From positions 1-52,475 of IMG/VR virus record IMGVR_UViG_3300024291_000003: a DNA stretch of 52,475 nucleotides. The stretch is one strand, 5' to 3'. Source of the DNA: a virus. Taxonomy: Duplodnaviria; Caudoviricetes. The position numbers were made by a program, and so were the translations under genes. The notes beneath the pieces are model-generated. The model was not told the DNA's origin and did not search any database. It was given only the letters and a program-made list of their open reading frames with translations. Each line of letters opens with the position of its first letter. Position 1 is the stretch's first letter. Shown one piece after another: positions 1 to 15,335 of the stretch.

Positions 1-428
1 CCGCCCATAAAATAATTGAACTTTATTACATTCTCGGTTTTACCGGTCTGAGGCATATATTCAGGGCCCTCTCCAATCTTTAGATCGAAGAGAGTTTCCT
101 GAGATATACCACGAGTTTTAAACCACTCAATTACTTGATCGCGTATAGCAAACGACTTATCAGGATGTTCCGGATCAGGCTGCTCAGGTTTAATATATAC
201 CTTTTCAGCTTTACCTTTACGTTGATAAGTATGCAATTGAAATGATGTATTACAATTATGACAAGTACCGAGACCCCGTTCCCAATCGTAAGACGCACAC
301 TTTGCCTTTTGATTCTTGGGTTTTCTATCGTGAGAACATACAGGGCATGTGCCTTGTTTCTTTCCCTCTTCAAGCTTATGTATATTGAACTCGTCAATAA
401 CAAATCCATTGATCTCTAATGTCTGCAT
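1..428 (-). CDS. Primase (probably primase-helicase), N-terminal part; runs off the window
   Basis: Own translation from ATG at 428: MQTLEINGF...TCPVCSHDRK...TCHNCN...WFKTRGISQET. Zn-ribbon (two CxxC) plus RGI motif typical of T7 gp4/Twinkle-like primases. Not in the ORF track because it has no stop in the window. Confidence 0.85.
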   Translation of the reverse strand, partial: MQTLEINGFVIDEFNIHKLEEGKKQGTCPVCSHDRKPKNQKAKCASYDWERGLGTCHNCNTSFQLHTYQRKGKAEKVYIKPEQPDPEHPDKSFAIRDQVIEWFKTRGISQETLFDLKIGEGPEYMPQTGKTENVIKFNYFMG

Positions 429-445
429 TTAATTTAATTTAATTG

Positions 446-556
446 TTAATCCCCGTCTCTGCATTCTGGACATATATCGCAAAAATCTATTTCTTCTTGC
501 GACATACCAGCGTGACACATTTGACACGCCAGTTCGCCGTTGTTTTTATAATGCAT
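446..556 (-). CDS. 36-aa Cys-rich mini-protein
   Basis: MHYKNNGELACQMCHAGMSQEEIDFCDICPECRDGD; start overlaps the upstream stop (TAATG coupling). Confidence 0.55.
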   Translation of the reverse strand: MHYKNNGELACQMCHAGMSQEEIDFCDICPECRDGD

Positions 557-864
557 TAAAACGGTAGATCATCTGCAGGCGCAGGAGCCGGAGCTGCCTG
601 AGCTGGTTGGTCTTGCCTTGGAGCAGCGGGAACATTATCACCGTTAGTCCATACTACTTGAACATTTCCTAAATAAGTTTTACCTTGCTTAGCTTCACGC
701 TCTTCCTTTGTTTGTGCTACAACAATCGGACCTTGATTCCCAAATTGATCTACTTCATCATTGATAGTAATAGTCACAGGTAAATACTTACCTTTCTTTC
801 CAATAATGATTTTGTCTTTTGGTATCTCGTTTAGATTGATACTCGCTTTAATAATACTTGCCAT
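556..864 (-). CDS. Single-stranded DNA-binding-like protein
   Basis: Beta-rich core, Pro/Ala linker and acidic C-terminal DDLPF tail typical of SSBs; lies between recombination genes and primase. Confidence 0.65.
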   Translation of the reverse strand: MASIIKASINLNEIPKDKIIIGKKGKYLPVTITINDEVDQFGNQGPIVVAQTKEEREAKQGKTYLGNVQVVWTNGDNVPAAPRQDQPAQAAPAPAPADDLPF

Positions 865-866
865 TC

Positions 867-1043
867 TTAATATTGATTTACTTGATTAAACATTCTTTGC
901 AACTGTTGTTTGGTTGCGCCGCTATTCCGCCTTAAGTTGTCTACGGCTTTTACATGGTTTTGGTTTGTGTAAAAGTTTGTAATTTCAGTTCTTAATCCCG
1001 TTACGGTACATACTTTTGTTACTGGTTTTCTGGTTCTTCCCAT
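867..1043 (-). CDS. 58-aa hypothetical protein
   Basis: Own translation MGRTRKPVTKVCTVTG...NQY; fills the gap in the operon. Confidence 0.6.
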   Translation of the reverse strand: MGRTRKPVTKVCTVTGLRTEITNFYTNQNHVKAVDNLRRNSGATKQQLQRMFNQVNQY

Positions 1044-1054
1044 TTTGTTTAAGT

Positions 1055-1786
1055 TTAAAGGGTTTTGTTAATAAAATAATTGTTTGGATCGAAATCCGGG
1101 TTATTGTAAAACAGCTTGTATTGTTCTGCTGCCTGTTGAACTTTGTCTGCTCCACGCTGATAAAACTCAGGAGAGCAATCAAATATTCCTATTTGATGAG
1201 TTGTTTTATCCATTACTATGAATAACATCTCGTAGCCAAATAGTTTACTATAAATATAAGCTTGCGAGTCATAATTGTATCTCCATGCTGAGCTACGGAA
1301 TTTTGTAATATCTCCGGTGGTTTTTAAATCAATTACTAAACCTTCTTCGTGATTTACAATATCCGCTTTGCCTTTCCATTTCAATCCCTCTAACTCAGTA
1401 ATCCCAGGCTGTTCATAATCTACTTTGGAGCCTCTTATTAATCCTCTGCAGACATCGTTTTCCATTAACTTGTCCGTCATTAAATCAATTTGATCTACCT
1501 CTTTTTGTAGAAGACATAGCTCTCCGCCTGAGATCTCTCTATACGCTTTAGTATTCCTTGTTGAACTTTCTACTATCCTATACTTCTTTAACTTGTCTGG
1601 TTCAAGAATAGCCGTGTGAAAGTAACCACCAACTAAAAATGCTGATGATGGTTTCATTGGAGTACCTAGCGCTAAAGGATTTGTCATTAAGGTTGAGATG
1701 TCGCTATTTGATAAGTATTGTTTTCCAAACTTACCATAGTAGTTTTCATCTTCTCTTAATTTTTCAATAGCTACTTTATCGTCCAT
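1055..1786 (-). CDS. PD-(D/E)XK RecE-like exonuclease
   Basis: LSNSDI, G.YFHTAILEP, KGKADI, IDLKTT and YDSQAYIY motifs; adjacent to ERF. Confidence 0.85.
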   Translation of the reverse strand: MDDKVAIEKLREDENYYGKFGKQYLSNSDISTLMTNPLALGTPMKPSSAFLVGGYFHTAILEPDKLKKYRIVESSTRNTKAYREISGGELCLLQKEVDQIDLMTDKLMENDVCRGLIRGSKVDYEQPGITELEGLKWKGKADIVNHEEGLVIDLKTTGDITKFRSSAWRYNYDSQAYIYSKLFGYEMLFIVMDKTTHQIGIFDCSPEFYQRGADKVQQAAEQYKLFYNNPDFDPNNYFINKTL

Positions 1787-2341
1787 TTATAGTGTTTTTA
1801 ATTCTGCCTCTATTTCTTTTGATAGAGAATACTTAGCTTTTATGGCTTCAATTTTACCACCTGCTTTTACATAATCGATCGCTTTGCTAAAAGCTGGATC
1901 TTTCTTAGAGGTTAAGGTTTCTTTGTTTTTAGCCGCGGAAGCTTTTCCGTGTGAGTTTGTAGCATCACTATCTGCAGTATCGTCGATTAGAAATAAATTC
2001 CCAAGAGCATACTTTTTCCCATAACTAGAAGCACTACCAAACTTTTGAGGCATTTGCATACCTTTTTGTTGAAGATCAATACCAACAATGGCTTTAGCGT
2101 GTATAGCAAGATCTGCATCGCCGTCACTTATTGTAGCTGTTGATTCCAATATAGGGAATGGGTCGCTAGCAATTAACTTTTCATTAATTGTAACAGTTAC
2201 TCCTAACTCTAATAGATAGGGTTTTGTTGCTTCTAGGATGTCTTCGGCTGATCTGAAGTTGTATTTGCCGAATGAATTAAATCTACTTTTTTTCGATTTA
2301 AACTTTGTCTGGATAGTTGCCAGTTTTTTATTTAAGGTCAT
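1787..2341 (-). CDS. ERF-family single-strand annealing protein
   Basis: FNSFGKYNFRSAEDI and QKFGSASSYGKKYALGNLFLIDD..D.D signature. Confidence 0.9.
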   Translation of the reverse strand: MTLNKKLATIQTKFKSKKSRFNSFGKYNFRSAEDILEATKPYLLELGVTVTINEKLIASDPFPILESTATISDGDADLAIHAKAIVGIDLQQKGMQMPQKFGSASSYGKKYALGNLFLIDDTADSDATNSHGKASAAKNKETLTSKKDPAFSKAIDYVKAGGKIEAIKAKYSLSKEIEAELKTL

Positions 2342-2390
2342 AAGGTTTTTGTTTTGGTATATTAATATAATTACACATTTTATTCATAAG

Positions 2391-3149
2391 TTAAAGATAA
2401 TCAATCACTTGGTTTGCGTCAGTGTTAGCGATTAGTTTATCTATTGCCTCTTTTTTAATCTGAGAAACACGCACATTTGCAGTGTCCATACTCATACCTA
2501 AAAACTTAGCTATATCATTAGCAGACATTTTATCGGTATCTAAACCAAAGCTTAAACGTAGTACATGATATTGTTGCTCGTTCAAATGTTGCTTCATTAA
2601 ACTTAGCAAGTAAGTATTTAGTATAGCTATGTTATAAGGCTCTGATTCGTCTGGTACTTGAAACAAAGGGTTTTCTTCGTTAGTATTAAAGTTAACGTCA
2701 ATACTAGAAAATATCGAATTAAAAAACATTGTAACGATTTTTTCGTCTTTTGGATTTTTTCTAATTTCATTTAGTTTATGTTCAGGTATACGTATATCAC
2801 CTCTGTTAATATCTATTGCACGTCTAATTGCTCCTTTAATTCTTTTACTAAAAAAGCTTTTAAGTGTTTTTTCAATATCTTCAGAGTCATTAAGTTTAGT
2901 CCATTCTAATTTGTCAACCGCTAGCACTAAACCTCTACTACCTTCTTGTATTAAGTCGTTAATACTTAAGACACCGGATGCTTGGTCACTCGTGGAAAAC
3001 TTTCTAGCTAGATTCTCTACTAATGGTAAAAACTTTACAATTAATTCATCTCTAGTATATTCGTCATAAAACTTACCCTCTAGGTTACATATAGAAGTCT
3101 TTAGATCCTCTTTGTATCTTATGTAGTTTTGTATGTTATATTTTTTCAT
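2391..3149 (-). CDS. Phage sigma-70-family RNA polymerase sigma factor
   Basis: Region 2 (LPLVENLARKF, DLIQEG..GL..AVDK, IKGAIRRAI, IRIPEH) and region-4 HTH (VLRLSFGL...DIAKFLG...RVSQIKKEAIDKL). Confidence 0.9.
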   Translation of the reverse strand: MKKYNIQNYIRYKEDLKTSICNLEGKFYDEYTRDELIVKFLPLVENLARKFSTSDQASGVLSINDLIQEGSRGLVLAVDKLEWTKLNDSEDIEKTLKSFFSKRIKGAIRRAIDINRGDIRIPEHKLNEIRKNPKDEKIVTMFFNSIFSSIDVNFNTNEENPLFQVPDESEPYNIAILNTYLLSLMKQHLNEQQYHVLRLSFGLDTDKMSANDIAKFLGMSMDTANVRVSQIKKEAIDKLIANTDANQVIDYL

Positions 3150-3154
3150 ATTTT

Positions 3155-3187
3155 TATTATCGAAACAAGATCGTGTTTATTTTGTAA
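3155..3187 (-). promoter_or_regulatory. Conserved phage promoter, copy upstream of the sigma gene
   Basis: TTACAA-N4-AACACGA-N8-CGATAATA. Confidence 0.7.
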
Positions 3188-3812
3188 ACGGATCCGCTTG
3201 TTGATTAAGTAGTTCTTTTTCTTTTTTAAGTTCATTGCCCATGTTTCTATATATAGTTCTAGTGGAACAACCTAAATTTTCTGCAAGTCTAGCTACTGTT
3301 ATTTTAATGCCATAATCGTTAATTAATAGCATAGCGTCATATATTTCATTTTCGGTTATACTTTTACGACCGATCAACTTTCCTACTATAGATAGCTTTT
3401 GTCGCATATCAAGTCCTGTAAAGTCTTTAAATATTACTTTACGTAGCTTGTTTGGCGGAGGTCGCTCTAAATCCATAAGAGATACATCGTATACCATGCT
3501 TTGCATTAGATTGTTTGAAACTTTAAAAGTAACAAATCCCGATCTCTTGTTGCACACGTGTTCTGCGATAGAATTAAAGCTCTCTTGGTCCAGTTGTGGA
3601 TTAAGATACCATAATACATACAAATGCCATTTAAGACTCTTATATGTAGTTATTTTAGCGCGCGAGTTGAATAGTGTATAGCATTGGTGCGTTCCGTTTT
3701 CATAGTGCCAACCCCATTCATAGGTTTTTGTTGGCTTGTCTGACCACGGAAAACATCTATATATTATACGATGCTTATCTAGGTATTTGGTATTTCGGTC
3801 GTAGTATGACAT
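3177..3812 (-). CDS. DNA-binding protein with C-terminal HTH
   Basis: C-terminal KITVARLAENLGCSTRTIYR helix-turn-helix; start codon overlaps an inverted-repeat element. Confidence 0.7.
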   Translation of the reverse strand: MSYYDRNTKYLDKHRIIYRCFPWSDKPTKTYEWGWHYENGTHQCYTLFNSRAKITTYKSLKWHLYVLWYLNPQLDQESFNSIAEHVCNKRSGFVTFKVSNNLMQSMVYDVSLMDLERPPPNKLRKVIFKDFTGLDMRQKLSIVGKLIGRKSITENEIYDAMLLINDYGIKITVARLAENLGCSTRTIYRNMGNELKKEKELLNQQADPFTK

Positions 3813-3850
3813 TAGGTTCTTACTATTAATTATATATTAGCTATCGTCAC
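3806..3850. repeat. Inverted-repeat element, copy 1
   Basis: ATGACATTAGG-23 nt AT-rich-GCTATCGTCAC. Confidence 0.75.
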
Positions 3851-3851
3851 A

Positions 3852-4073
3852 TTAGTAGATTAAAATCTTTAATCTTCTGTTGTACTTTCTTAAAAGCTTT
3901 GCTTTATTTTCTATGTTGCCATACAAAACAGTTATGTTTTTATTATAACTATATTCTCCTTTGAATGACGCAGTCACTATCTCATTATGAAGTAGTAGTA
4001 TTCTGTTTTCTAGAAACTTTACGTGCTTTACTTTTCTTCTGTTCTTTTTTAATTTTCGTATTAATGTTCGCAT
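3852..4073 (-). CDS. Basic hypothetical protein
   Basis: 73-aa ORF coupled to its neighbours. Confidence 0.55.
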   Translation of the reverse strand: MRTLIRKLKKNRRKVKHVKFLENRILLLHNEIVTASFKGEYSYNKNITVLYGNIENKAKLLRKYNRRLKILIY

Positions 4074-4552
4074 AATTCGTTGATGTAATGTGGTCGTATA
4101 ATTTTTTGCTCATTTTTATTTTTTACTTTATGTTTGTCTTGTTCGTAATAATTCCAGTACGCAGCTAAGCTACTAGATTCTTTGTATTCGTCGGGCATAC
4201 ATTGTGGTGGTTCAACAAATCCGTTGTCCGGGATTCCACTTGGTGGATACATTAAAGCCTCACGACACTTAGCAATGCTGAGGTGATGTTTATTGTATCT
4301 GTTTGTATATTCCCGACCGAGTGCAAGCATGTGATCATAGAGCCAGTTGTAATGGTGTACACTTTCTCTTACCCATATAGTACTTGGGTGATTAAGATGC
4401 GCTTTTTTGTATGGTACATTATCACCGTTGTTAAATACGTGGTGAGCTGTGCATAACATTTGAGCTGACTCTAAGATCATTTTTACTTTGTGCTTGTCAT
4501 AAAAGAAACTAGCAGCTTTAGCGGGGTCTGGGTGTAAATAAAATATATTCAT
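4061..4552 (-). CDS. Pyrimidine-dimer DNA glycosylase (endonuclease V-like family)
   Basis: MNIFYL...DKHKVKMILESAQML...HLNHPSTIW...EYT.RY.K.H motifs. Confidence 0.75.
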   Translation of the reverse strand: MNIFYLHPDPAKAASFFYDKHKVKMILESAQMLCTAHHVFNNGDNVPYKKAHLNHPSTIWVRESVHHYNWLYDHMLALGREYTNRYNKHHLSIAKCREALMYPPSGIPDNGFVEPPQCMPDEYKESSSLAAYWNYYEQDKHKVKNKNEQKIIRPHYINELCEH

Positions 4553-4663
4553 CTATTTATATCTTTTATTATTAACTCTATTATAATGTTTGTCTAATAA
4601 GAGGTGGGCTACTTCCTCGCTTATTCTGTTTTCGTTGTATAGTTGCCATATTAATTTATTCAT
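4553..4663 (-). CDS. Small hypothetical protein (MNKLIWQLY...)
   Basis: Internal ATG of track ORF 4553..4762 that overlaps the end of the ligase gene. Confidence 0.5.
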   Translation of the reverse strand: MNKLIWQLYNENRISEEVAHLLLDKHYNRVNNKRYK

Positions 4664-5483
4664 AGTTACGTAAAGTTTTATACAGAGGGTGGCGATAACT
4701 ATTAGCTTTAGTACGCTCGAAATAAGTGAACGTTGCACGTTTGCCAATATAGTCGTCAACATTGTTTAGTATGTCACGGCGGTCTTGAAAGTTGTAGCCT
4801 TTGCCGATAGGGCAGCCGAACTCAATACCATCGTCGTCACACATTAGAAACTTACCGATTAAGCCAGTAAATTTGCCTTTACCGGGTACATAGCCTACTA
4901 TTGTCGCCTCGGTATCGTGAAAATCTTTAAACTTTTGTAGGTTATAAGATCGTTTACACTCGTAAACACCGTTTAAACGCAAAATAGAGCCTTCGTAGCC
5001 TTCGTCAAGCCAGTTTTCGTGTATAGCATTCGCTAGATCACGGGTTGCAACAGGATGTGTTGGTACATACTTAACACAATAAGAATACAATGCTGCAGTA
5101 GACAAAAATTTCATACGCTCTTCAAACTTAGCTGAGGTATCGATATAATCGTAGCAATGGAATTGCACGAGATCACAGGATTCGACACGATCAACAGCGG
5201 TTGGTTTGGTTTTACGAACAAGTGAAATGATTTTTTCGAAATCACTTTTTAGGTCGTGGTTGTATAATTCGCCGTCGAGTATTAAATCAGGGTATTGCTT
5301 AAACACTGGCTTAAGATTGGATAATATGTGGTCAATGTTTAGCCACGGTTTGCCTGTACGCGAGAACGCACCGTCTTTAGAGATTACGCAACGTACGCCG
5401 TCAAGCTTAGGTTGCATGAATACTTTCTCGGACCAGTCGACAGGTTTTTTGTCTACTTTGTATGCGAGCATTGGTTTTATCAT
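4656..5483 (-). CDS. ATP-dependent DNA ligase
   Basis: KPMLA, motif I QPKLDGVRC, LDGELY, YEGSILR, KRS..LQKFK and OB domain. Confidence 0.95.
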   Translation of the reverse strand: MIKPMLAYKVDKKPVDWSEKVFMQPKLDGVRCVISKDGAFSRTGKPWLNIDHILSNLKPVFKQYPDLILDGELYNHDLKSDFEKIISLVRKTKPTAVDRVESCDLVQFHCYDYIDTSAKFEERMKFLSTAALYSYCVKYVPTHPVATRDLANAIHENWLDEGYEGSILRLNGVYECKRSYNLQKFKDFHDTEATIVGYVPGKGKFTGLIGKFLMCDDDGIEFGCPIGKGYNFQDRRDILNNVDDYIGKRATFTYFERTKANSYRHPLYKTLRNYE

Positions 5484-5764
5484 AATTTATTTAGTTTAGT
5501 TTCTATTTTTTTTATTTTATTATTTATTATTGCTGCTTTTTCATATTGTTCGCGCTCTTCATACTGCGTTAAAAGAGTCATAAGTCTAGCTAATTCAGCT
5601 AATAACAACTCTTCTTCTGACGCATGTAGTAAGTCATTGCCCGAAAACATAGTATTTACATCGTTAGTAAACTGCAGATCCCATTCTTTTTGCTTTTCAA
5701 TTAAAGCGTTAAAAACGAGATCCGCAATCTTAACTGCTAGTTTATCTAGCTCGCCTTCACTCAT
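5480..5764 (-). CDS. Hypothetical protein with UVR-like C-terminal coiled coil
   Basis: EQYEKAAIINNKI resembles the UvrB/UvrC motif. Confidence 0.55.
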   Translation of the reverse strand: MSEGELDKLAVKIADLVFNALIEKQKEWDLQFTNDVNTMFSGNDLLHASEEELLLAELARLMTLLTQYEEREQYEKAAIINNKIKKIETKLNKL

Positions 5765-5994
5765 TAAGCGTAAGAGAATTTATATACAGGTAGTACATAC
5801 TTGTTAATAAATTTACCCTTAGACTCAGAAGTACGTAGGCCTTCGAACACGTGGTTCGGCACTTTGTGGTAATTGTACGATTGACCGTTGTTAAACTGTA
5901 GTTTTAAACGATAACTTGAATACTCATAGATAGCGTTTTGAATTGCAGTGGAGTTAACCTGTACAATTTGTTTTGGTAGAATTAATTTGTTCAT
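5764..5994 (-). CDS. KTSC-domain protein
   Basis: VNSTAI...Y...L.LQF.NG..Y.Y..VP..VF..L..SESKGKFIN. Confidence 0.9.
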   Translation of the reverse strand: MNKLILPKQIVQVNSTAIQNAIYEYSSYRLKLQFNNGQSYNYHKVPNHVFEGLRTSESKGKFINKYVLPVYKFSYA

Positions 5995-6019
5995 AAATTT
6001 AATTGTTTTTATTTGTTAT

Positions 6020-6052
6020 TATTATCGTTTTACATTCGTGTTTATTTTGTAA
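6020..6052 (-). promoter_or_regulatory. Conserved phage promoter
   Basis: TTACAA-N4-AACACGA-N8-CGATAATA upstream of KTSC. Confidence 0.8.
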
Positions 6053-6053
6053 G

Positions 6054-6659
6054 TTAATGAAATACTAAACCTACTTTATTTGTTTTATTAAACCACCTAG
6101 TAGCATACAAATCTACTGAAGAAGCGTCAGTATAACCAGCAGATATAAGATCGCTATTACTAGAAAATATTTTGGTGTGTCGGTGTTTTCTTTCATTTAT
6201 TAAATGTTTTTGTTTACCTGAATCACTGAATATAATATCGTAATTGTCTGGTAATGAAGTTTTTAAGATCATATCTACCATATTGGTGTAACTGTAAAAC
6301 CGTACGTCTGGGTTGTGTATAGCAATTTGAATCCACTTTTTTAGATATGCGGGTGAGTAGTAGTCTCCGCTATCATGGACTCTTACGTAATCTGGTTTTT
6401 TACGTTTTATCTCAGTATTCATTGCATCAATAAACTCATCGGTCTTGGTTAGCTCGTATCGTTTCTCAAACGCCGGCTTTACGTTACTCCATATATATGC
6501 TCCTTTCTTAGCATAACAGAATTTAACACAGGCATCCGCCATAGGGCACGTTAATTTACCGCTCGCAGATTTATATGCGGGAATGCCGAAATTAAATACC
6601 CTTAGATTAAGGCTTTTGGATGTTTTCTTTAGTTTAGAGTTTTGTGTTAGTAAATTCAT
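6054..6659 (-). CDS. gp88-like Cys-cluster protein
   Basis: NSKL, TCP.A.AC..FCYA, VRVHDSGDYYS and FYSYT motifs. Confidence 0.75.
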   Translation of the reverse strand: MNLLTQNSKLKKTSKSLNLRVFNFGIPAYKSASGKLTCPMADACVKFCYAKKGAYIWSNVKPAFEKRYELTKTDEFIDAMNTEIKRKKPDYVRVHDSGDYYSPAYLKKWIQIAIHNPDVRFYSYTNMVDMILKTSLPDNYDIIFSDSGKQKHLINERKHRHTKIFSSNSDLISAGYTDASSVDLYATRWFNKTNKVGLVFH

Positions 6660-6660
6660 A

Positions 6661-6933
6661 TTAGTCTAATAATACCATATAAGCTTCAACATTGTTCTTG
6701 CGAAACCAGTTGAGTGCTTTATGGAAGTCGTTAATTTGTTTTGTTGTTACCGTCTTAGGTGCTACTTCAAACACGTATTGGCTACCCATTATAAAATCAT
6801 ACATAGATAGCTCAATACCGTTTAGGTTAAAGCTTTCGCCACTAAATTTATTAGTAACTTCTTCACCTTTATCGTAGATCATACCTTTAAACCATTTAGG
6901 TATTGTTTGTTCTTTAATCTTCGTCATCGCCAT
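6661..6933 (-). CDS. Hypothetical protein
   Basis: 90-aa ORF ending AYMVLLD, in operon. Confidence 0.7.
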   Translation of the reverse strand: MAMTKIKEQTIPKWFKGMIYDKGEEVTNKFSGESFNLNGIELSMYDFIMGSQYVFEVAPKTVTTKQINDFHKALNWFRKNNVEAYMVLLD

Positions 6934-7270
6934 CTATTCTGAATAAGTCTTCAATTTCACTGCAAATGTTTTCTTCAAGATCATCTGTGTAGTTGAATTC
7001 TATGTTAGACACTTCTACTCTATTATCGTAGTTTAATTCAAAGTCAATATCGTAGTTGTCGGCATTATCGAATTGATAGCCTCGTATACCTTCGCACACG
7101 GCTTCACGTATTTGATCTCGTATTTCTACAGATATTACAGGTTTGTTTACATCAGCGAGCTGTACTTTAGCTTCTTGTAATTGCTTAGCAAGTGCTGTTT
7201 GATCGGTTTCGAATTGCGTTAACGCAGCGGTTAACTCTTTTACTTTTAATTCTAATTGTTCTTTAGTCAT
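6914..7270 (-). CDS. Hypothetical protein, coiled-coil N-terminus, acidic C-terminus
   Basis: 118-aa ORF in operon. Confidence 0.7.
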   Translation of the reverse strand: MTKEQLELKVKELTAALTQFETDQTALAKQLQEAKVQLADVNKPVISVEIRDQIREAVCEGIRGYQFDNADNYDIDFELNYDNRVEVSNIEFNYTDDLEENICSEIEDLFRIDGDDED

Positions 7271-7271
7271 A

Positions 7272-7517
7272 TTATTCTTGTTTTATTAAAATGTTTTCAC
7301 CATATTTGAAATCCCACGCTGAAACTTTATAAAATTCTAGATGGGTAAATGTGTATAGCGAGCTAACGTCGCTAATTTTTAATTCACTATAGAACTCAGT
7401 ACTTGATAAAGCGTTGACTATAGAGTCTATACTTGCTTGATACTTTTCGTTTTCAGGTGAATGTAATGCTTCTTTGATTTCTGGCTTTAGCCTTTGATAA
7501 ATTGTTAGTCTACTCAT
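7272..7517 (-). CDS. Hypothetical protein
   Basis: First ORF after the promoter at 7536-7568. Confidence 0.7.
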   Translation of the reverse strand: MSRLTIYQRLKPEIKEALHSPENEKYQASIDSIVNALSSTEFYSELKISDVSSLYTFTHLEFYKVSAWDFKYGENILIKQE

Positions 7518-7535
7518 AATTGTTTTTGTTTATTA

Positions 7536-7568
7536 TATTATCGTTTATTGTTCGTGTTTTGTTTGTAA
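7536..7568 (-). promoter_or_regulatory. Conserved phage promoter
   Basis: TTACAA-N4-AACACGA-N8-CGATAATA. Confidence 0.8.
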
Positions 7569-7750
7569 ATGTCTTCAAAGTTTTCTAAGGCTAATTTGTA
7601 GCCAAAGTTTTTCGCCATTTGCATTAGTAAAAAGTCGTTTGTACCGTTATTTGCCTTAGTGAAGGCTTCTAAATAATCTTCGGTAGGCGTAGCCACAATA
7701 CCTCGATCGAGCATTTGATACTCTTGTTTAATGAAATTCTTTATATCCAT
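7538..7750 (-). CDS. Hypothetical protein
   Basis: 70-aa ORF with AT-rich leader, just downstream of the mini-tmRNA. Confidence 0.65.
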   Translation of the reverse strand: MDIKNFIKQEYQMLDRGIVATPTEDYLEAFTKANNGTNDFLLMQMAKNFGYKLALENFEDIYKQNTNNKR

Positions 7751-7769
7751 AATATTTAATTTTAATTAG

Positions 7770-7849
7770 TGGAGGTGGAGAGATTCGAACTCTCTTCCGC
7801 AGTGTTTCCCATATAGGGCTTTACACCACGTCAATACCAGGTCACCCCC
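7770..7849 (-). ncRNA. Miniature tmRNA-like RNA (tRNA-like domain only)
   Basis: GGGGGUG/CACCUCC acceptor with G3-U70 and A discriminator; stemless D-loop ending UUGAC; P2 GUGGUGU/ACACUGC capped by a short hairpin; GGAA linker; T-arm GAGAG-UUCGAAU-CUCUC. Confidence 0.85.
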
Positions 7850-7853
7850 TGTT

Positions 7854-8035
7854 GTAACTAGTGAGGATTCGAACCTCATACTCGTCAGTAGTAAACCTAC
7901 CTAGTTGCCGCTAGAATCGGCCTCTGAAAACAACCGCATGAACTTATCGCCGCGATTGCCCTCCTGCCTTGCCATCTAGCATCGGTTTTCGTATTTTCTA
8001 TAGAGCCATATACCGTAAAACTCTGCCACTAGCTA
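7854..8035 (-). ncRNA. 182-nt tRNA-like RNA with a large internal insertion
   Basis: Acceptor UAGCUAG/CUAGUUA, then UGGCAGAG D-arm start; T-arm UGAGG-UUCGAAU-CCUCA; no canonical anticodon arm identifiable. Confidence 0.7.
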
Positions 8036-8096
8036 TTCACTTATGTACACACGTATCTCCTCCCTGAGTTCCTATGTGTCTAATTAAGCTACTCGT

Positions 8097-8285
8097 CTAG
8101 CGTCTTCGCCAAGATTTATGCACTAAGGCACTTAGTTCTTGACTAACTATCTGTATTGTATTACCAGTTTTATGTTCTATTATTGGTACATAACTATAAT
8201 CTTGAACAGTGCTACAAGGTACACATGTTTTATAACCATACTCTATCCTGATCGGATGAACTTCAACTCCGCATTTACAATACAT
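8097..8285 (-). CDS. Small zinc-finger protein
   Basis: MYCKCG...HPIR...GYKTCVPCS; resembles DksA/TraR-type C4 finger; first gene after the promoter at 8314. Confidence 0.7.
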   Translation of the reverse strand: MYCKCGVEVHPIRIEYGYKTCVPCSTVQDYSYVPIIEHKTGNTIQIVSQELSALVHKSWRRR

Positions 8286-8310
8286 AATATTTTATTTTTA
8301 TTTGTTACAT

Positions 8311-8751
8311 TTATATTATCGATAATGCTTCGTGTTGCTTTTGTAAATAATTTAATACACTTGTCCAATCAGGAAATTTATCAGTACCGAATTGTATAAG
8401 TTCACCACCGAACTCACCAGCGCCGTTAGCCGTTCTGTCGTCGATCAAATAATCGCCACTTAATAAGTTTTTGTGGTTAGATAGGATCAACTTTTTATAA
8501 GCGTGTTTACCTAAGTGTTTACTTACCCACATTCTCTTATGAGTCCAAGATTTAGGCATACCCCACGGCGCAGTGGATAATATATATACATCAAGACCGT
8601 CGGTTTCGCATAACTTTTTAAATGCCTCAACCGCATAACCTATGGGTTGTAAGTCTTTAAATATGTGTTGGTGCCAACCTGTTCTATTTAGTTCGGTTTG
8701 TAGATCAACCAGGACGCCGTCCATGTCTATATATATTATCTTATTCTTCAT
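8311..8751 (-). CDS. 5'(3')-deoxyribonucleotidase (NT5C, HAD family)
   Basis: IYIDMDGVLVD, ILSTAPW, K..W...H, GDYLIDD; probable start is ATG 8751 (MKNKII), not 8844. Confidence 0.9.
   Translation of the reverse strand: MKNKIIYIDMDGVLVDLQTELNRTGWHQHIFKDLQPIGYAVEAFKKLCETDGLDVYILSTAPWGMPKSWTHKRMWVSKHLGKHAYKKLILSNHKNLLSGDYLIDDRTANGAGEFGGELIQFGTDKFPDWTSVLNYLQKQHEALSII
8314..8346 (-). promoter_or_regulatory. Conserved phage promoter, upstream of the zinc-finger gene and both ncRNAs
   Basis: TTACAA-N4-AACACGA-N8-CGATAATA. Confidence 0.8.
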
Positions 8752-8941
8752 AATAATTCTTTTTAATAGCGAAGTACATTTTCTCGATCGCTCGGAACAT
8801 AACTTCACCGTGTATAGCATTGTAGTCATCACCTTCTTGATCAAAGTCCGCTAATTGCCAGTCAATACTGTCATACATTAATTCCATAGTGACGTCCGCT
8901 ATTCCTTCAGCGATATCGTCTAATTCTTTCATTTTACCCAT
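8741..8941 (-). CDS. Acidic hypothetical protein
   Basis: MGKMKEL...; coupled to neighbours. Confidence 0.65.
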   Translation of the reverse strand: MGKMKELDDIAEGIADVTMELMYDSIDWQLADFDQEGDDYNAIHGEVMFRAIEKMYFAIKKNYYEE

Positions 8942-9116
8942 ACATATAATCTTCCATTGCGTTAATAAAGTCTTCTCTATCTATTATTTGTCTATCGTAG
9001 CATTCAAGGTTGAACAAGAAAGCTTCGTGTAGTTCTCGCTTACTTACTGGTACAGCGGGGAATCCACCGTCCTCTAGTATTTCGTAATACTTTTTTACTG
9101 AATCACTCATTACCAC
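8934..9116 (-). CDS. Hypothetical protein
   Basis: 60-aa ORF in operon. Confidence 0.6.
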   Translation of the reverse strand: MVMSDSVKKYYEILEDGGFPAVPVSKRELHEAFLFNLECYDRQIIDREDFINAMEDYMYG

Positions 9117-9216
9117 TTAGTTTCATTAGGCATAGGACCCATAAATTCATAAAACGCTTTGTGGTACTTAGTTATTTTTGCGATAACTAAATGACTAAAT
9201 TTTCTTACTTTTTTCA

Positions 9217-9492
9217 TTACTTACAGTTTTTATTGTTAAATTCTAATAATCTTCTTATGCGATCGGAATGATTAGGTATTAATGATCTTACCCAATTGTA
9301 GCCGTATTCGCTGTTTGGTTTATACCAATGCTTTGTTTGCTTGGTTATTTGGTACATTAGCGGTTTTTTATGGTAATAGTTATCTTGTTTGGTAGATACT
9401 CTTACGTGACCGCTAGGATAGGTTGCACCAATTCGTCCATCACTCAATTTAAAATGTAGAGCTCCATCTTTAGTTACTTTAATTAATTCCAT
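9217..9492 (-). CDS. Hypothetical protein
   Basis: 91-aa ORF in operon. Confidence 0.65.
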   Translation of the reverse strand: MELIKVTKDGALHFKLSDGRIGATYPSGHVRVSTKQDNYYHKKPLMYQITKQTKHWYKPNSEYGYNWVRSLIPNHSDRIRRLLEFNNKNCK

Positions 9493-9773
9493 GTGTTACT
9501 TAATGGTTTAGTATAATAATTTACATTTGTATTTGCACCTATACTTTTAGCGACATTTTGTCGTAGTTGCCACTCGCGTTTGCGGTACTCCGGATCGGTA
9601 CACCATTTACGCCACGCTGTTGACGTTGTATTAGGTTTATATTTTTTCTCGAATTCATCTATCTGCGCCAGTTTCGCTGCGATCTGGTCGGCAGGGTAGT
9701 CTTTAAACTTGGACATAAGTAAGGCCTTTATAGTTAAACCATTGGTATATACCGTCTTTATCGGTTTCTTCAT
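9483..9773 (-). CDS. Hypothetical protein
   Basis: 96-aa ORF in operon. Confidence 0.65.
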   Translation of the reverse strand: MKKPIKTVYTNGLTIKALLMSKFKDYPADQIAAKLAQIDEFEKKYKPNTTSTAWRKWCTDPEYRKREWQLRQNVAKSIGANTNVNYYTKPLSNTWN

Positions 9774-9905
9774 TGTATTTGAAGGCGAATAGTGGAGGCA
9801 AATTACCGACTGTATAGCATTTGTACTTTACATTACCTAGTTTAATAGTTTTGTCAGTGGATATTTTAAATTTCTGCATATATATTATTTTATTTGTTAC
9901 ATTTA

Positions 9906-9938
9906 TATTATCGTTTGTAGGTCGTATTGACTTTGTAA
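9906..9938 (-). promoter_or_regulatory. Conserved phage promoter
   Basis: TTACAA-N4-AATACGA-N8-CGATAATA. Confidence 0.8.
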
Positions 9939-9940
9939 AT

Positions 9941-10180
9941 TTATCTACTATGATAGAAAGTATGAATACGTTCCGATCTGTTCTGAGCTTCCCAGAGCTT
10001 AGTGTGAGAGTAAGATCTACCCTTACTACCCGCTCCTTTGGCTTTTACTTGGTACTTTTTGTACTCTTTATCGGTTAATCCGCTACATAGATCACCTCTA
10101 GTTACTTCTATTCTATGCTTTTTAGCTTTCGCTATTCGGGCGTTTTTAACGTATTCACACGCTTCTTTCATTGTCATCAT
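9941..10180 (-). CDS. Basic hypothetical protein
   Basis: 79-aa ORF ending just before the next promoter. Confidence 0.65.
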   Translation of the reverse strand: MMTMKEACEYVKNARIAKAKKHRIEVTRGDLCSGLTDKEYKKYQVKAKGAGSKGRSYSHTKLWEAQNRSERIHTFYHSR

Positions 10181-10379
10181 AGTATTCGTTTTAATTGTTC
10201 TTTAATTGCTAGTATATCTTCGTCACTGACTTCAACTTCTTCGTCACTCTCCCGTTGCCATATAACATTGTACATAGCGTCGTGGAAATTGTTACCTATT
10301 ATCTCATCTAAGCGATTAGCGATTTCTTTAGTTTCGTCCCAAGTTAAATTCATTGTTAGTTATTTATTTATTACAATTA

Positions 10380-10412
10380 TATTATCGTTAAGTGATCGTA
10401 TTAGTATTGTAT
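10380..10412 (-). promoter_or_regulatory. Conserved phage promoter
   Basis: ATACAA-N4-AATACGA-N8-CGATAATA. Confidence 0.8.
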
Positions 10413-10598
10413 ATTATTTTCAATTTGAGTCATTAGAGAAGCAAATAATTGCTCAGTGGTTTCGCCATCTTCTAAACTACATTCGTTAGTTACAAAGTCT
10501 AGTACTCTTATAGCAACGGAAGCAAAGCCGTTGAGGTCATATAGGTCGACATAGTATTCGATTGTTTCGGGATTCCAGTAGAATTTAGTATTTTTCAT
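10401..10598 (-). CDS. Hypothetical protein
   Basis: 65-aa ORF with AT-rich leader. Confidence 0.6.
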   Translation of the reverse strand: MKNTKFYWNPETIEYYVDLYDLNGFASVAIRVLDFVTNECSLEDGETTEQLFASLMTQIENNIQY

Positions 10599-10735
10599 AT
10601 TATTTAAATTTATTTGCTACTTCGTATATTTCTTCTTTATCGTCCTGATCCAAATTGTCTGTTTGATTAGCGTACATTCTTAGTACATAGTGTACAAAGG
10701 TACAATCACCGTCGGTAAGTTTTATATTTCTCATA

Positions 10736-10984
10736 TTACTTGTTCATATTTATTGTTACTTCAACCCAGCCTTTCTCACTGTGACCGGCATATACTTTTA
10801 ATCCGTCTTTAGTTAGTATTTCTTCTAACCGTTCCGCTGCTCGCCAAAGACTTGGTTCTGGCATTTCATCGTGTTCGTCGTCGTACATTACTTCGCCTCT
10901 ACATTGGTAGAACACATCGTCTACGTCATTCTCTACTAGTTCAAAATCCCAACCGTTTACGGTAATATTTTCACATAATTCCAT
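10736..10984 (-). CDS. Acidic hypothetical protein
   Basis: 82-aa ORF in operon. Confidence 0.7.
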   Translation of the reverse strand: MELCENITVNGWDFELVENDVDDVFYQCRGEVMYDDEHDEMPEPSLWRAAERLEEILTKDGLKVYAGHSEKGWVEVTINMNK

Positions 10985-10986
10985 AT

Positions 10987-11190
10987 CTATTCAGTTGTAA
11001 AGGTTGATGGAAATTTTGACACCATAAACTTAGCTAACCCAAGTCCGTCATTTGCACTGTTTGCAATGTGTTTCGCTATCCGATCTTGCATTTCGAATAA
11101 GTCATCTTGGCAATACTGATCACACAAGAAGAATCGGTCACCACCCATTAGTTCGCATAGGTCATCGATGAATTGTACATTTTTACTCAT
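10987..11190 (-). CDS. Hypothetical protein
   Basis: 67-aa ORF in operon. Confidence 0.65.
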   Translation of the reverse strand: MSKNVQFIDDLCELMGGDRFFLCDQYCQDDLFEMQDRIAKHIANSANDGLGLAKFMVSKFPSTFTTE

Positions 11191-11278
11191 ATTTCTTTAT
11201 TTATTATTATTTATTAACCACATTAACTGTGCGTATTCTTCATATTCTTGTTCGCTATTAAATCCGTGTTCACTCATA

Positions 11279-11416
11279 TTATTTAGTATTTGTAGATTTA
11301 TAAAATTCAATTCTTTCGTTGACTTCGTCTCGAGTTATTTCACCCGTCATTTGCCGTAATACATCGGTAGACATATCGATCCGTTTTCCGTTAGGACATT
11401 TTAGTATAAATTGCAT
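11279..11416 (-). CDS. Small hypothetical protein (MQFILKCPNG...)
   Basis: Probable start is the internal ATG of track ORF 11279..11461. Confidence 0.55.
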   Translation of the reverse strand: MQFILKCPNGKRIDMSTDVLRQMTGEITRDEVNERIEFYKSTNTK

Positions 11417-11433
11417 AATTAGTATTTTTAAGA

Positions 11434-11553
11434 TTAATAGAAATCGTAGTAGATATCCCATACTTTAGAACGCTGTTCGTCGGTTAATTTAGTATAGTGT
11501 TTATCGAATAGATTATAAGATATTTTTAGTAAGTCGGTAGATTGTGTAGACAT
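11434..11553 (-). CDS. 39-aa early mini-protein
   Basis: MSTQSTDLLKISYNLFDKHYTKLTDEQRSKVWDIYYDFY, downstream of the promoter at 11582. Confidence 0.55.
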   Translation of the reverse strand: MSTQSTDLLKISYNLFDKHYTKLTDEQRSKVWDIYYDFY

Positions 11554-11581
11554 TGTTATTAGTATTTTTATTATTCATATA

Positions 11582-11614
11582 TATTATCGTTTGGTATTCG
11601 TATTTATATTGTAA
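11582..11614 (-). promoter_or_regulatory. Conserved phage promoter
   Basis: TTACAA-N4-AATACGA-N8-CGATAATA. Confidence 0.8.
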
Positions 11615-11704
11615 AAAGTATATACTTTGTTTGTGAGTTAAAATAGTAGTACAGGTATTGTCCTCAACCTCTAAGTACCTAAATAAATTATTTTCAAAAA
11701 TAGT

Positions 11705-11749
11705 GTGACAATAGGGTATTAAGTAAATATAATAAGAAGCTATCGTCGC
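11705..11749. repeat. Inverted-repeat element, copy 2
   Basis: GTGACAATAGG-23 nt AT-rich-GCTATCGTCGC. Confidence 0.75.
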
Positions 11750-11806
11750 ATACCGATTTAAGATCAAATACCTAAAATTTGACTGTGTTATAGGTGGTTG
11801 CTATAC

Positions 11807-11910
11807 ACCTCAGTTACGATGCGTATTAAGTGGTGGATCCCTCAGTGTATTTACCCTGCCCAGTTAAGCCTGCTTCAAAGCCATAGGTTCGGACAGTCAC
11901 CCGTTGAGGT
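11807..11910 (-). ncRNA. Putative structured RNA
   Basis: GC-rich intergenic segment closed by ACCUCA/UGAGGU, with inner GGUG/CACC and UCC/GGA pairings. Confidence 0.4.
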
Positions 11911-11920
11911 TAGACTTAGA

Positions 11921-12235
11921 TTACTTTACTTCCTCTAAGTCAATTCTTTCAATTACTGTATTTCTAACATTAGATGGCATATCGGTAGATTGAGACCAAT
12001 AACCTCTTTTAATCCAACAAGGCATGATGTTTAGTTTAGGTAACATTACTTTAAGTACTTCATCATGATTGTAAGTAATCTTTTGATTTTTGTTGTTAAC
12101 AAAGGTTATAATTTGATTACGACCATACCAAGATTTTCTTACTACAAAGTTTTTTCTTTCAATAGGTGGGAAGATTTCATTTAGTTCTTCTTTAGATAGT
12201 TTAGAAATTGTTTCATTTAGTTTAATAGAATTCAT
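11921..12235 (-). CDS. Early hypothetical protein
   Basis: 104-aa ORF downstream of the promoter at 12279. Confidence 0.75.
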   Translation of the reverse strand: MNSIKLNETISKLSKEELNEIFPPIERKNFVVRKSWYGRNQIITFVNNKNQKITYNHDEVLKVMLPKLNIMPCWIKRGYWSQSTDMPSNVRNTVIERIDLEEVK

Positions 12236-12278
12236 AAGATTTTATATTTATTAAGTTATTATTTATTTGTTACATTTA

Positions 12279-12311
12279 TATTATCGTATACTAGACGTGT
12301 TAAGTTTGTAA
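12279..12311 (-). promoter_or_regulatory. Conserved phage promoter
   Basis: TTACAA-N4-AACACGT-N8-CGATAATA. Confidence 0.8.
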
Positions 12312-12317
12312 GTTTAT

Positions 12318-12473
12318 TTAGATTATATCTAATTCAAGTAGTATACTTTCAAGTATATCCTCCTCGAGGAATTGTTCCTGGTCGTAGTCCAGTTTCATGA
12401 TCTCGATCTGATCTAGGATCTCGGATAAATGTCCAGGATATCTGGATACTATTAGTTGTTCAATTCTGTTCAT
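12318..12473 (-). CDS. 51-aa acidic mini-protein
   Basis: MNRIEQLIVSRYPGHLSEILDQIEIMKLDYDQEQFLEEDILESILLELDII (13 D/E, 3 K/R). Confidence 0.6.
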   Translation of the reverse strand: MNRIEQLIVSRYPGHLSEILDQIEIMKLDYDQEQFLEEDILESILLELDII

Positions 12474-12484
12474 ATTATTTTGTT

Positions 12485-12652
12485 TTATTTATATTGTTGT
12501 ATTAATTTGTTTATATCATTTAGATTTGAAAAGTGGTAATGATAGATAACTTCTTTTGTGTTTGAATTGAATATTGTAAAATCATACATTTTGTGATTTG
12601 AGCAATAATAAATTTGAAAGAAAGTTTTGTTTTTAAAGATTGTATTAGACAT
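12485..12652 (-). CDS. 55-aa early mini-protein
   Basis: MSNTIFKNKTFFQIYYCS...QQYK, first ORF after the promoter at 12682. Confidence 0.55.
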   Translation of the reverse strand: MSNTIFKNKTFFQIYYCSNHKMYDFTIFNSNTKEVIYHYHFSNLNDINKLIQQYK

Positions 12653-12681
12653 TTTATATTTGTTTTTATTTGTTACATATA

Positions 12682-12714
12682 TATTATCGTTTTGATATCG
12701 TATTAAGTTTGTAG
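12682..12714 (-). promoter_or_regulatory. Conserved phage promoter
   Basis: CTACAA-N4-AATACGA-N8-CGATAATA. Confidence 0.8.
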
Positions 12715-12875
12715 AGTATTGTAAGTGCTATACATGCTATACACGGTGTGACGGAGTATACTCTTCCGATCGTATCACAGGATCAGGCCGTAAAGCTGTT
12801 GGTTCCGACTTACGAGTAAAGCTCACGCAGTCTAAATGCAATGCAGAACCAGGATCAGATCAGGTCATGATCAGT

Positions 12876-13031
12876 TCAGCGCTCCAGGATCTCGGTCCCG
12901 ATGACTTTGCTCGTGGACTCATCACGATAGCACACGCGCAGATAATTGCTGAGGTGCTGATCAGTTTTGAATTCGAGCACGCGACTGTTGTAATTGCCGC
13001 GCCAGTTCTTTGTATCTATTCTTACAAGCAT
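12876..13031 (-). CDS. 51-aa early mini-protein
   Basis: MLVRIDTKNWRGNYNSRVLEFKTDQHLSNYLRVCYRDESTSKVIGTEILER. Confidence 0.6.
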   Translation of the reverse strand: MLVRIDTKNWRGNYNSRVLEFKTDQHLSNYLRVCYRDESTSKVIGTEILER

Positions 13032-13047
13032 GTTAAAAGGTTTAAGG

Positions 13048-13149
13048 TTAATGTTTATTCTGTTTGTTGGACTGTACTGTCATGTAGCCAGCAGCCAGCA
13101 GCAAGACCGCGAATATGATCCCGATCCCGATGTCTGTGATCTGTGTCAT
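13048..13149 (-). CDS. 33-aa single-TM peptide
   Basis: MTQITDIGIGIIFAVLLLAAGYMTVQSNKQNKH. Confidence 0.55.
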   Translation of the reverse strand: MTQITDIGIGIIFAVLLLAAGYMTVQSNKQNKH

Positions 13150-13153
13150 CAGG

Positions 13154-13309
13154 CTATCCATAGATCCCGAATGATGTTGGCACGTTACCCATGATCAGAT
13201 TGGTTACGATCGCAAGGATCCCGATCCCGACTGCTGTTGTCATTGTTACAGCGTAAACGTTTAGCGCTAGATTGATCCATACATTGTGGTGAAATTTAAT
13301 TTGTCTCAT
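13154..13309 (-). CDS. 51-aa membrane peptide, first gene of the early arm
   Basis: MRQIKFHHNVWINLALNVYAVTMTTAVGIGILAIVTNLIMGNVPTSFGIYG, downstream of the promoter at 13354. Confidence 0.6.
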   Translation of the reverse strand: MRQIKFHHNVWINLALNVYAVTMTTAVGIGILAIVTNLIMGNVPTSFGIYG

Positions 13310-13353
13310 AGTTATTATTGTTATTGTTATTGTTATTATTTGTTATTCATATA

Positions 13354-13386
13354 TATTATCGTAGGTGTATCGTAACAATACCGTAA
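13354..13386 (-). promoter_or_regulatory. Conserved phage promoter, most upstream and most divergent copy
   Basis: TTACGG-N4-GTTACGA-N8-CGATAATA. Confidence 0.7.
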
Positions 13387-13674
13387 GAAACAACTGAGCG
13401 CGAGATCATGCTGGACTGGATCAGGATCAGATGCTGTGCCGCGCTGTGGCCTGGAGCTGTGGCTGTGCTGGACCTGGATAAGCGCAATCCCGAGCCAGGA
13501 TCCTGTGAGCTGTGCTGATGTTAATGCTATACGCAAAGCTGGGATCATACAAACGTAAACGTGAAACGTGGGCGGGGCTGGGAAAACAAAAGCGCTTTTA
13601 CTTTTAGTGGTAGACAGTGAATTGATAGTAGCAACCCATTACCTCTATATATCTAAGTATTTTTTAAATATTTT

Positions 13675-13718
13675 GCGACGGTAGGTTGTTATATATAATA
13701 GTAGCTAGCTATCGTCAC
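13675..13718. repeat. Inverted-repeat element, copy 3
   Basis: GCGACGGTAGG-22 nt AT-rich-GCTATCGTCAC. Confidence 0.75.
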
Positions 13719-13774
13719 TTTTAATAAACCAGAAAACAGCGTAATCATACAAAGTATGTCACTAAAATAAGATT

Positions 13775-14011: not shown

Positions 14012-14054
14012 AAAAAACTCGTAAACGAGTATAATAAACAAACAACCGACCAAA

Positions 14055-15326: not shown

Positions 15327-15335
15327 AATAACAAC

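Follow-up and report, generated by a model that had tools for sequence, protein, structure and literature searches.

Why would a phage carry the same short, oriented word again and again along one arm of its genome and hardly at all along the other? The question is raised by the virus record IMGVR_UViG_3300024291_000003, whose entire 52475 bases are the window analyzed here (the genome is incomplete, relatives being 58–66 kb long), and it concerns the 10-base word TGCTATACAC. The window has a minus-strand early arm, from position 1 to ~13.4 kb, and a plus-strand late arm of 39 kb, and it contains seven exact copies of the word and six with one mismatch, 13 in all. The coordinates, strands and mismatch states that an earlier note on this sequence had assigned to these 13 sites are all correct (Table 1): eight copies are on the minus strand and four on the plus strand within the early arm and control region, and a single one-mismatch copy at 38909 is alone in the late arm. 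That copy is probably there by chance, as 3.9 copies with up to one mismatch are expected in shuffled sequence. In 100 dinucleotide shuffles the exact word is present on average 0.13 times (largest 2), the count with up to one mismatch does not exceed 10, and none of the shuffles reaches the observed numbers. By composition TGCTATACAC is the most over-represented 10-mer of the window, and against a third-order Markov background it ranks second, behind the core of the early promoters.

The word has several distinctive properties. First, selection on it acts at the nucleotide level, and is imposed on the coding sequence at the cost of amino-acid choice. Within genes it is read in three frames (as AIH, CYT or LYT, as follows from the open reading frame [ORF] coordinates), and frame usage at 222 dereplicated gene-body sites of relatives is 143/49/30. 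The earlier note had taken the signal to lie in the nucleotides, and a codon-preserving shuffle bears this out: the 29 minus-strand ORFs (10260 nt) contain five exact copies against a mean of 0.25 after synonymous-codon shuffling, and seven with up to one mismatch against a mean of 1.7, with 0 of 1000 shuffles reaching either count. The GP88 gene provides an independent view, since the word is kept exact among relatives whose GP88 proteins are 74–92% identical to that of the window while nearby synonymous sites vary; in GP88 of relatives without the word, AKS, ANS, ANQ or ALL is found in place of AIH. It is because no codon shuffle matches the window and because GP88 retains the word amid varying synonymous neighbors that we place the constraint on the nucleotides.

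Second, the word is widely conserved. We retrieved 80 related IMG/VR loci by way of the GP88 protein (20-kb loci, 1,280,503 nt in total), and 61 of these contain the exact word, in 333 copies, whereas a control word (reversed but not complemented) has four copies in the same 80 loci. Of the 19 loci without a copy, 17 come from a lineage further removed, with which only GP88 and the exonuclease are shared. A more distant lineage with a shared GP88 (L053, L064 and L023) has an enriched word of its own, GATGAGTGTGAAC, with four copies per locus on both strands. Individual sites turn over between relatives and density is kept, with a median gap of 1381 nt between copies (220 gaps). The mean coefficient of variation of the spacing is 0.48, compared with 0.80 in simulations, and is significantly low (p≤0.05) in 16 of 35 loci, although these loci are related and not independent. 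In five whole relatives the exact copies likewise cluster in the early arm, with 1–3 copies elsewhere. A text search of the literature gave the word in no phage context among the 20 matches listed of 33, supplementary files being outside the search; the constraint is a strong one without earlier description, and it is kept across relatives of an abundant marine phage group.

Third, the word is a short, asymmetric consensus with no requirement in its flanks. Among 150 contexts less than 70% alike, no position within 40 nt exceeds 0.3 bit. Tolerance of change is clearly above background (~2.5 per variant) only at position 10 (C>T 69, C>A 23 and C>G 14), at position 9 (A>G 53) and at position 1 (T>C 9); the next commonest change is C>A at position 3 (9). 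From the tolerated substitutions we estimate its information content at roughly 18–19 bits.

Fourth, the copies are polar, and their polarity separates them into two classes. When dereplicated sites are placed relative to the GP88 start, those in early gene bodies (−3000 to +7499) are co-oriented with the early genes in 220 cases and opposite in 6, whereas in the control region, upstream of −3000, the numbers are 38 and 133. Beyond +7500 there are 14 co-oriented and 10 opposite copies, and in several relatives (e.g. L001) one opposite copy there is a recurrent copy within the conserved thyA gene. In the window the polarity is mirror-symmetric about 9.8–11.8 kb, and the four control-region copies all point to the late arm.

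The earlier note interpreted the copies as oriented sites for a DNA-tracking process. The copies could be lagging-strand priming sites, Chi/KOPS-like words arranged about an origin near 10–11.7 kb, or ratchet sites for genome entry, and each of these would be compatible with the mirror symmetry, with a GC skew that turns near 11–12 kb (before gene orientation does), with a spacing of ~1.4 kb that resembles that of Okazaki fragments, and with the presence of a gp4-like primase-helicase gene. However, the word is missing from the late arm, which is about two thirds of the replicon, its orientation at the same locus differs between relatives, and a sister clade described below keeps the primase without the word. 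Nor is there enrichment in 201 genomes of Flavobacteriaceae, the host family of the cultured relatives with a named host: these contain 0–12 copies each, similar to the reversed-word control, the 12 copies of one of them (G011) being on misbinned phage contigs; in the two genomes in which host copies were examined, 12 of 12 are unrelated ORF matches. Priming sites and Chi/KOPS-like host words are therefore disfavored, because the sister clade lacks the word and the 201 genomes show no enrichment, and we consider a role in replication or DNA tracking very improbable.

The strongest clue to function comes from the reversed copies. These form tandem arrays of 1–3 copies, 9–14 bp apart, that abut the upstream edge of early promoters, members of a family that fronts the minus-strand genes and has about ten representatives in the window; this promoter-fixed arrangement is a new finding of the present analysis. 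Motif-bearing loci contain 438 early-promoter cores; a reversed copy is located in the 75 nt upstream of 61 of these, and 46 of the 61 linked copies end 20–29 nt from the GATAATA core, the window array standing 36 nt from the core of its promoter. By our own assignment of the −10 element, the arrays lie at about −42 to −63. The share of promoters with a reversed copy falls with rank along the arm, from 28/54 for the first through 13/53, 7/50, 8/46, 3/46 and 2/42 to 0/147, such that repeated sites stand at a fixed position from promoters and are concentrated at the first ones, as in an operator array. This constant spacing of the plus-strand copies ahead of the first early promoters ties the word to transcription control rather than to generic DNA tracking; of the earlier interpretation, the oriented, conserved, nucleotide-level signal is supported, and priming sites and Chi/KOPS-like host words are not.

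Because the arrays are promoter-fixed, we tentatively favor the reading that the word is the recognition site of one sequence-specific factor, as yet putative, that controls transcription of the early arm, although we would not put it as high as an even chance. The consensus TGCTATAC(A/g)(C/t) would be bound by this one factor at two classes of site. Class A comprises the 1–3 tandem reversed copies just upstream of the first (immediate-early) promoters, a position at which contact between RNA polymerase and an activator or repressor would be expected. Class B comprises the single bare copies on the coding (non-template) strand within early genes, about every 1.4 kb, at which the factor, engaged with the DNA, with the exposed non-template strand or with the nascent RNA, might act on the elongating polymerase in a polar manner, the outcome being a roadblock, a pause or an antitermination signal. 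Candidates for the reader include a small clade-specific phage protein, a domain of a giant virion protein, and a host factor. A more specific version, which we regard as unlikely, is that a single factor reads the word in two opposite orientations for two tasks, with reversed arrays switching the immediate-early promoters and co-oriented copies every 1–2 kb serving as a polar mark over the entire early arm, either a roadblock or pause for RNA polymerase or a programmed nick in the non-template strand. If true, early transcription would be under a phage-wide, orientation-coded control for which there is no described counterpart in Bacteroidota phages. Whether operator or roadblock, nick or RNA signal, the word offers a handle on early-gene timing in Bacteroidota phages, about which little is known.

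The sister clade is informative here. Its four genomes (G006–G009) have the same gene order, and their primase N-terminal segment, ERF, sigma factor and helix-turn-helix (HTH) protein are 60–78% identical to those of the window (68–78% for the primase-helicase over the window's 142 N-terminal residues), and they contain 0–4 copies of the word, no arrays, and no replacement word that we could find. Since arrays and gene-body copies are both absent from a clade that keeps primase, ERF, sigma factor and HTH protein, the word appears to be an add-on regulatory layer. The search for a replacement in the motif-poor genomes gave a changed promoter core (GGATAATATA in this clade) and, in G006 and G007, a palindrome, GTAGCTAC. 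As GTAGCTAC(A), this palindrome is over-represented in the corresponding motif-poor loci L026 and L029 at six copies per 20-kb locus, and GTAGCTACA has 13 copies in G007. The nearest cultured relatives, Elemovirus, share the two-arm layout and lack the word, and their first 32 kb have no word comparable to TGCTATACAC. What sets the motif-poor clade apart from the motif-rich genomes is the tail module, together with thyA and a handful of small genes, a contrast that rests on a single evolutionary split, and a search of the four motif-poor genomes yielded no homologue of the thyA-like gene of motif-rich type. A correlation of the word with gene content failed for lack of statistical power, because the motif-poor genomes represent one clade or two close ones.

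Several observations weigh against control of early transcription by such a factor. First, no reader protein was found among the window and clade genes compared. Besides thyA and tail genes, only small genes of unknown function are confined to motif-rich genomes, and the distribution of all of these reflects that single split; the HTH protein has a recognition helix (CSTRTIYRNM) identical in motif-rich and motif-poor clades, and no match among solved structures. The most attractive candidate was the 78-aa product of the first late-arm gene (13775–14011, plus strand; family KLSPxARxRKAARD), in which 28 residues are Lys or Arg and some stretches are rich in arginine; we rejected it, as it is also present in the motif-poor loci L009 and L025. 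Second, the gene-body copies sit mid-gene, unlike ordinary operators: by fifths of the gene they number 32/54/84/48/4 against an expectation of 48/45/45/46/39, being nearly absent from the last fifth, and there is no excess in intergenic DNA (44 of 266, 17% against 16% by chance). Third, a plain operator model does not predict the fairly even spacing and leaves the opposite orientation of the two classes unaccounted for, and in L001–L003 the copies downstream of the w11921 homologue are in the other orientation. Fourth, the early arm has no more intrinsic terminators than shuffled sequence would have. Finally, nicking of virion DNA at the copies would yield the same pattern at class B sites.

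This last process, in which a phage nickase would cut the motif strand in packaged DNA in the manner of T5, phiKMV-like and tf/LUZ24-like phages, would be well served by a short, strict, asymmetric word free of flanking information, such as the 9-mer of tf, and the copies are indeed strand-specific, clustered in one arm, prone to turnover between relatives and absent from the sister clade; an ATP-dependent ligase is encoded in the window. Nonetheless it seems rather unlikely. Tandem copies 9–14 bp apart at a fixed promoter distance are not expected of nick sites, and the copies are not confined to one strand, either in the window or in the relatives, where the preference differs between gene bodies and upstream DNA. 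Moreover, no nuclease gene was found among those confined to motif-rich genomes or in the giant proteins, and of the 54 motif-rich loci (some of them truncated) no more than 11 gave a ligase homologue. We found no paper linking nicks with Cellulophaga phages, supplementary files again being outside the search.

The placement of gene-body copies relative to promoters and genes bears on a third possibility. Such copies are depleted over the 200 nt that follow a promoter (0.055 versus 0.126) and are commoner in the 300 nt before the next promoter (0.44 versus 0.26) and 150–400 nt before the next start codon. This upstream preference would suit an extended −10-like promoter or pause element, TGcTATAca, recognized in the non-template strand by either the phage sigma factor (2391–3149, minus strand) or a host sigma factor, as would the TG-n-TATA spacing within the word (the consensus being TGnTATAAT), the possession of a sigma factor with regions 2 and 4, and the facing of all four control-region copies toward the late arm. 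The expectation would be middle-mode starts or sigma-dependent pauses in the early arm and late-arm-directed starts from the control region. We judge this improbable: the word has no start-site or discriminator signal downstream and is in front of no late operon, position −7 would be A rather than T, and the copies show no intergenic excess and avoid gene ends. Region 2.4 of the sigma factor is, furthermore, near-identical between clades, with a single fixed difference (A/R in IRRxID) at a site that, aligned to Escherichia coli sigma-70, we take to lie away from the −10 contacts; the recognition helix of region 4.2 has a cluster of fixed clade differences (TA.V.VSQIK versus SNYVR.SE.K).

The word might alternatively act in RNA, with UGCUAUACAC in early mRNAs serving as a linear box (boxA/nut-like) or as a seed target; immediate-early RNAs would then contain the complement, GUGUAUAGCA, from the reversed copies of the control region, and the two classes could pair. 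The mRNA sense of the gene-body copies is in keeping with this, as is the reversal of control-region copies under an unchanged direction of transcription, which is what complementarity between RNAs needs, and the commonest tolerated changes (C>T at position 10 and A>G at position 9) would keep G-U pairing. In addition, the motif strand after the arrays is GC-rich and forms hairpins (mean −5.8 kcal, compared with −4.9 for shuffles and −3.0 at gene-body sites), and the early arm is found in six seawater metatranscriptome runs among 22 runs listed. On the other hand, most array copies read GCGTATAGCA and have a mismatch to the target at position 9, the hairpins exceed those of shuffles by little, the arginine-rich 78-aa protein shows no correlation with the word, and a fixed promoter distance is a feature of DNA. 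The copies in two Flavobacteriaceae genomes are chance matches inside ORFs rather than rrn leaders, and mimicry of a host rrn boxA is rejected for these two genomes. A signal in RNA, too, is thus a quite improbable explanation. The sequencing runs were compared as assembled contigs, with four RNA runs placed on positions 1–16000, and no transcript starts, ends or strands are readable from them; recurrent contig breakpoints look like strain branching, and two contig ends inside copies (6317 and 11803) are not significant, as ~0.7 of ~55 ends would be expected there by chance on a rough estimate. Metatranscriptome contig depth is far lower at 13351–13884 than to the left or right of it.

Other elements of the control region are listed with the copies in Table 1. 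The best sigma-70-like match in 1–14200, GTGACA-17-TATAAT, lies inside the interval in which the polarity flips, ~60 nt upstream of the 11799 copy, and is similarly placed in seven close relatives. A rule by which every copy would be sense to some transcript, using this plus-strand element, applies to the 8 loci of the window's subclade and to some extent elsewhere, and fails in L001–L003. We do not build upon it, because the orientation at that locus is opposite in L001–L003 and because the GTGACA word, GTGACAATAG, is also the half-site of an inverted repeat in relatives. This repeat, with half-sites like TGTGACAATAG and an AT-rich core, is located beside motif copies (window ~11700–11745, L001 5790–5860, L003 3790–3840 and L027 6045–6100) and might represent an origin, two promoters placed back to back, or an operator of palindromic type. 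Four GC-rich repeats (GATCCCGATCCCGA...) at 12888–13515 overlap small ORFs that encode hydrophobic peptides. The early genes looked at had no visible Shine-Dalgarno sequence in front of them.

Table 1. Copies of the word and associated control elements in the window.
Feature	Position	Strand	Context
Gene-body copy TGCTATACGC, one mismatch	141..150	-	Primase-helicase fragment
Gene-body copy, exact	2099..2108	-	ERF gene, frame AIH
Gene-body copy, exact	3674..3683	-	HTH-protein gene, frame CYT
Gene-body copy, exact	5019..5028	-	ATP-dependent ligase gene, frame AIH
Gene-body copy, exact	6315..6324	-	GP88-family gene; position common to many relatives
Gene-body copy CGCTATACAC, one mismatch	7351..7360	-	ORF 7272-7517, frame LYT
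Gene-body copy, exact	8810..8819	-	Overlap of ORFs 8741-8941 and 8311-8844
Copy TGCTATACAG, one mismatch	9810..9819	-	~90 nt downstream of early-promoter core at 9906
Reversed copy, exact	11799..11808	+	Gap between minus-strand ORFs, ~60 nt downstream of plus-strand GTGACA-17-TATAAT
Tandem array of two overlapping-adjacent copies, TGCTATACAT (12726, one mismatch) and TGCTATACAC (12735, exact)	12726..12744	+	Directly upstream of promoter unit 12645-12714
Reversed copy TGCTATACGC, one mismatch	13525..13534	+	Control region, between last minus-strand promoter and late-arm start
Isolated copy, one mismatch	38909..38918	+	Late arm
Imperfect palindrome CGGAGTATACTCTTCCG	12752..12768		Adjoins array; same element beside motif copies in L001, L003, L004 and L027
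Early-promoter family, three conserved blocks, TTTRCAAAC..TACGA..CGATAATATAWATG	3141..13385	-	
Early-promoter repeat units	3141-3187, 5995-6052, 7499-7568, 8277-8346, 9869-9938	-	
Early-promoter repeat units	10343-10412, 11557-11614, 12242-12311, 12645-12714, 13329-13385	-	
Best sigma-70-like match in 1-14200, GTGACA-17-TATAAT (11/12)	11705..11733	+	Inside polarity-flip interval

The phages concerned are abundant, uncultured marine podoviruses of ~62 kb. The early arm of the window encodes a primase-helicase fragment (T7-gp4-like, with 142 N-terminal residues present), a PDDEXK exonuclease, ERF, the sigma factor, the HTH protein, a Pyr_excise-like protein, the ATP-dependent ligase, the GP88-family protein and an NT5C-like nucleotidase; in relatives it goes on with a full gp4-like primase-helicase, thyA, MazG, DUF1064 and ribonucleotide reductase, and the two arms converge. 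The thyA-like, MazG-like, NT5C-like and ribonucleotide reductase genes (L001 17283–19612; window 8311–8844) have possible functions in nucleotide pools or base modification. An early-arm intergenic gap has an Rfam match to transfer-messenger RNA (tmRNA) at 7767–7849 on the minus strand (63.9 bits, gathering score 47), which covers model positions 1–374 in 83 nt only and looks like the tRNA-like domain alone; ARAGORN reports no tRNA or tmRNA in the window.

The late arm encodes GroEL, large terminase, portal, a crAss muzzle C-terminal domain protein and a giant ORF (45769 to the end). We considered a crAss-type virion RNA polymerase in the giant ORF and found it unsupported, there being no match among solved structures and no DFDxD motif; its sole Pfam match is an AAA_33/zeta-toxin-like domain, and a 2940-aa homologue gives one weak below-threshold match and nothing else. 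Neither the DNA of the two arms nor the protein of ORF 14055–15326 (not the terminase) matched cultured phages. The terminase has 87 relatives among cultured phages, and the named hosts are all Flavobacteriaceae (Flavobacterium 68, Cellulophaga 15, Tenacibaculum 2 and Maribacter 1), from which we infer that this is presumably the host family of the window as well. The phage GroEL gives no host, because its matches are phage contigs binned into metagenome-assembled genomes (MAGs) of many taxa. Two long sequences, G011:C7 (a 117-kb contig in a Flavobacteriaceae MAG) and IMGVR_UViG_3300047157_000162 (129.5 kb; L028 and L033), are about twice the genome length, and either the pattern of motif spacing is repeated in them or GP88 is present at two loci; this looks like concatemerization or faulty assembly of related phages, with the product ending up in bacterial MAGs.

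Comparison with known systems places the word between several of them. The C1 repressor of P1 reads asymmetric operators scattered over the phage genome and sited at promoters; the asymmetric word at many genome sites is similar here, but the majority of copies are polar, evenly spaced and located in the middle of genes, and the reader is putative. The lambda nut sites (boxA and boxB) and the RfaH ops element are promoter-proximal, are present once per operon and reprogram elongating RNA polymerase. Like them, the word is a short, linear, strand-specific element in transcribed DNA, its gene-body copies are in sense orientation, and its control-region units are followed by small GC hairpins; unlike them, it has 8–14 copies that are rarer just after promoters, and the annotated genes gave no factor resembling N, Q or NusG. 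T4 late promoters (TATAAATA) are bare 8-mers without a −35 partner that are read by a phage sigma factor, and share with the word the form of a bare 8–10-base sequence sometimes inside upstream genes, although here the copies are not before late genes and region 2.4 of the sigma factor has one fixed clade difference. For the crAss-like phage phi14:2, the promoter passages of bioRxiv 10.1101/2020.03.07.982082 describe early transcripts of the virion RNA polymerase without a common upstream motif, and middle promoters that are tripartite and sigma-70-like. The passages on nicking in the tf report (PMC3517423) give the consensus 5′-TACT/RTGMC-3′, a 9-mer that varies between relatives, and 14 nicks, all in the same strand, of which 11 are in the left half. 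The nick words of tf/LUZ24-like, T5 and phiKMV-like phages differ from the word described here in that here the strand flips, tandem arrays are fixed at promoters and no nickase was found; as described in those passages they resemble it in being short, strict and asymmetric, located within genes, strand-specific and clustered, and different in or absent from relatives.

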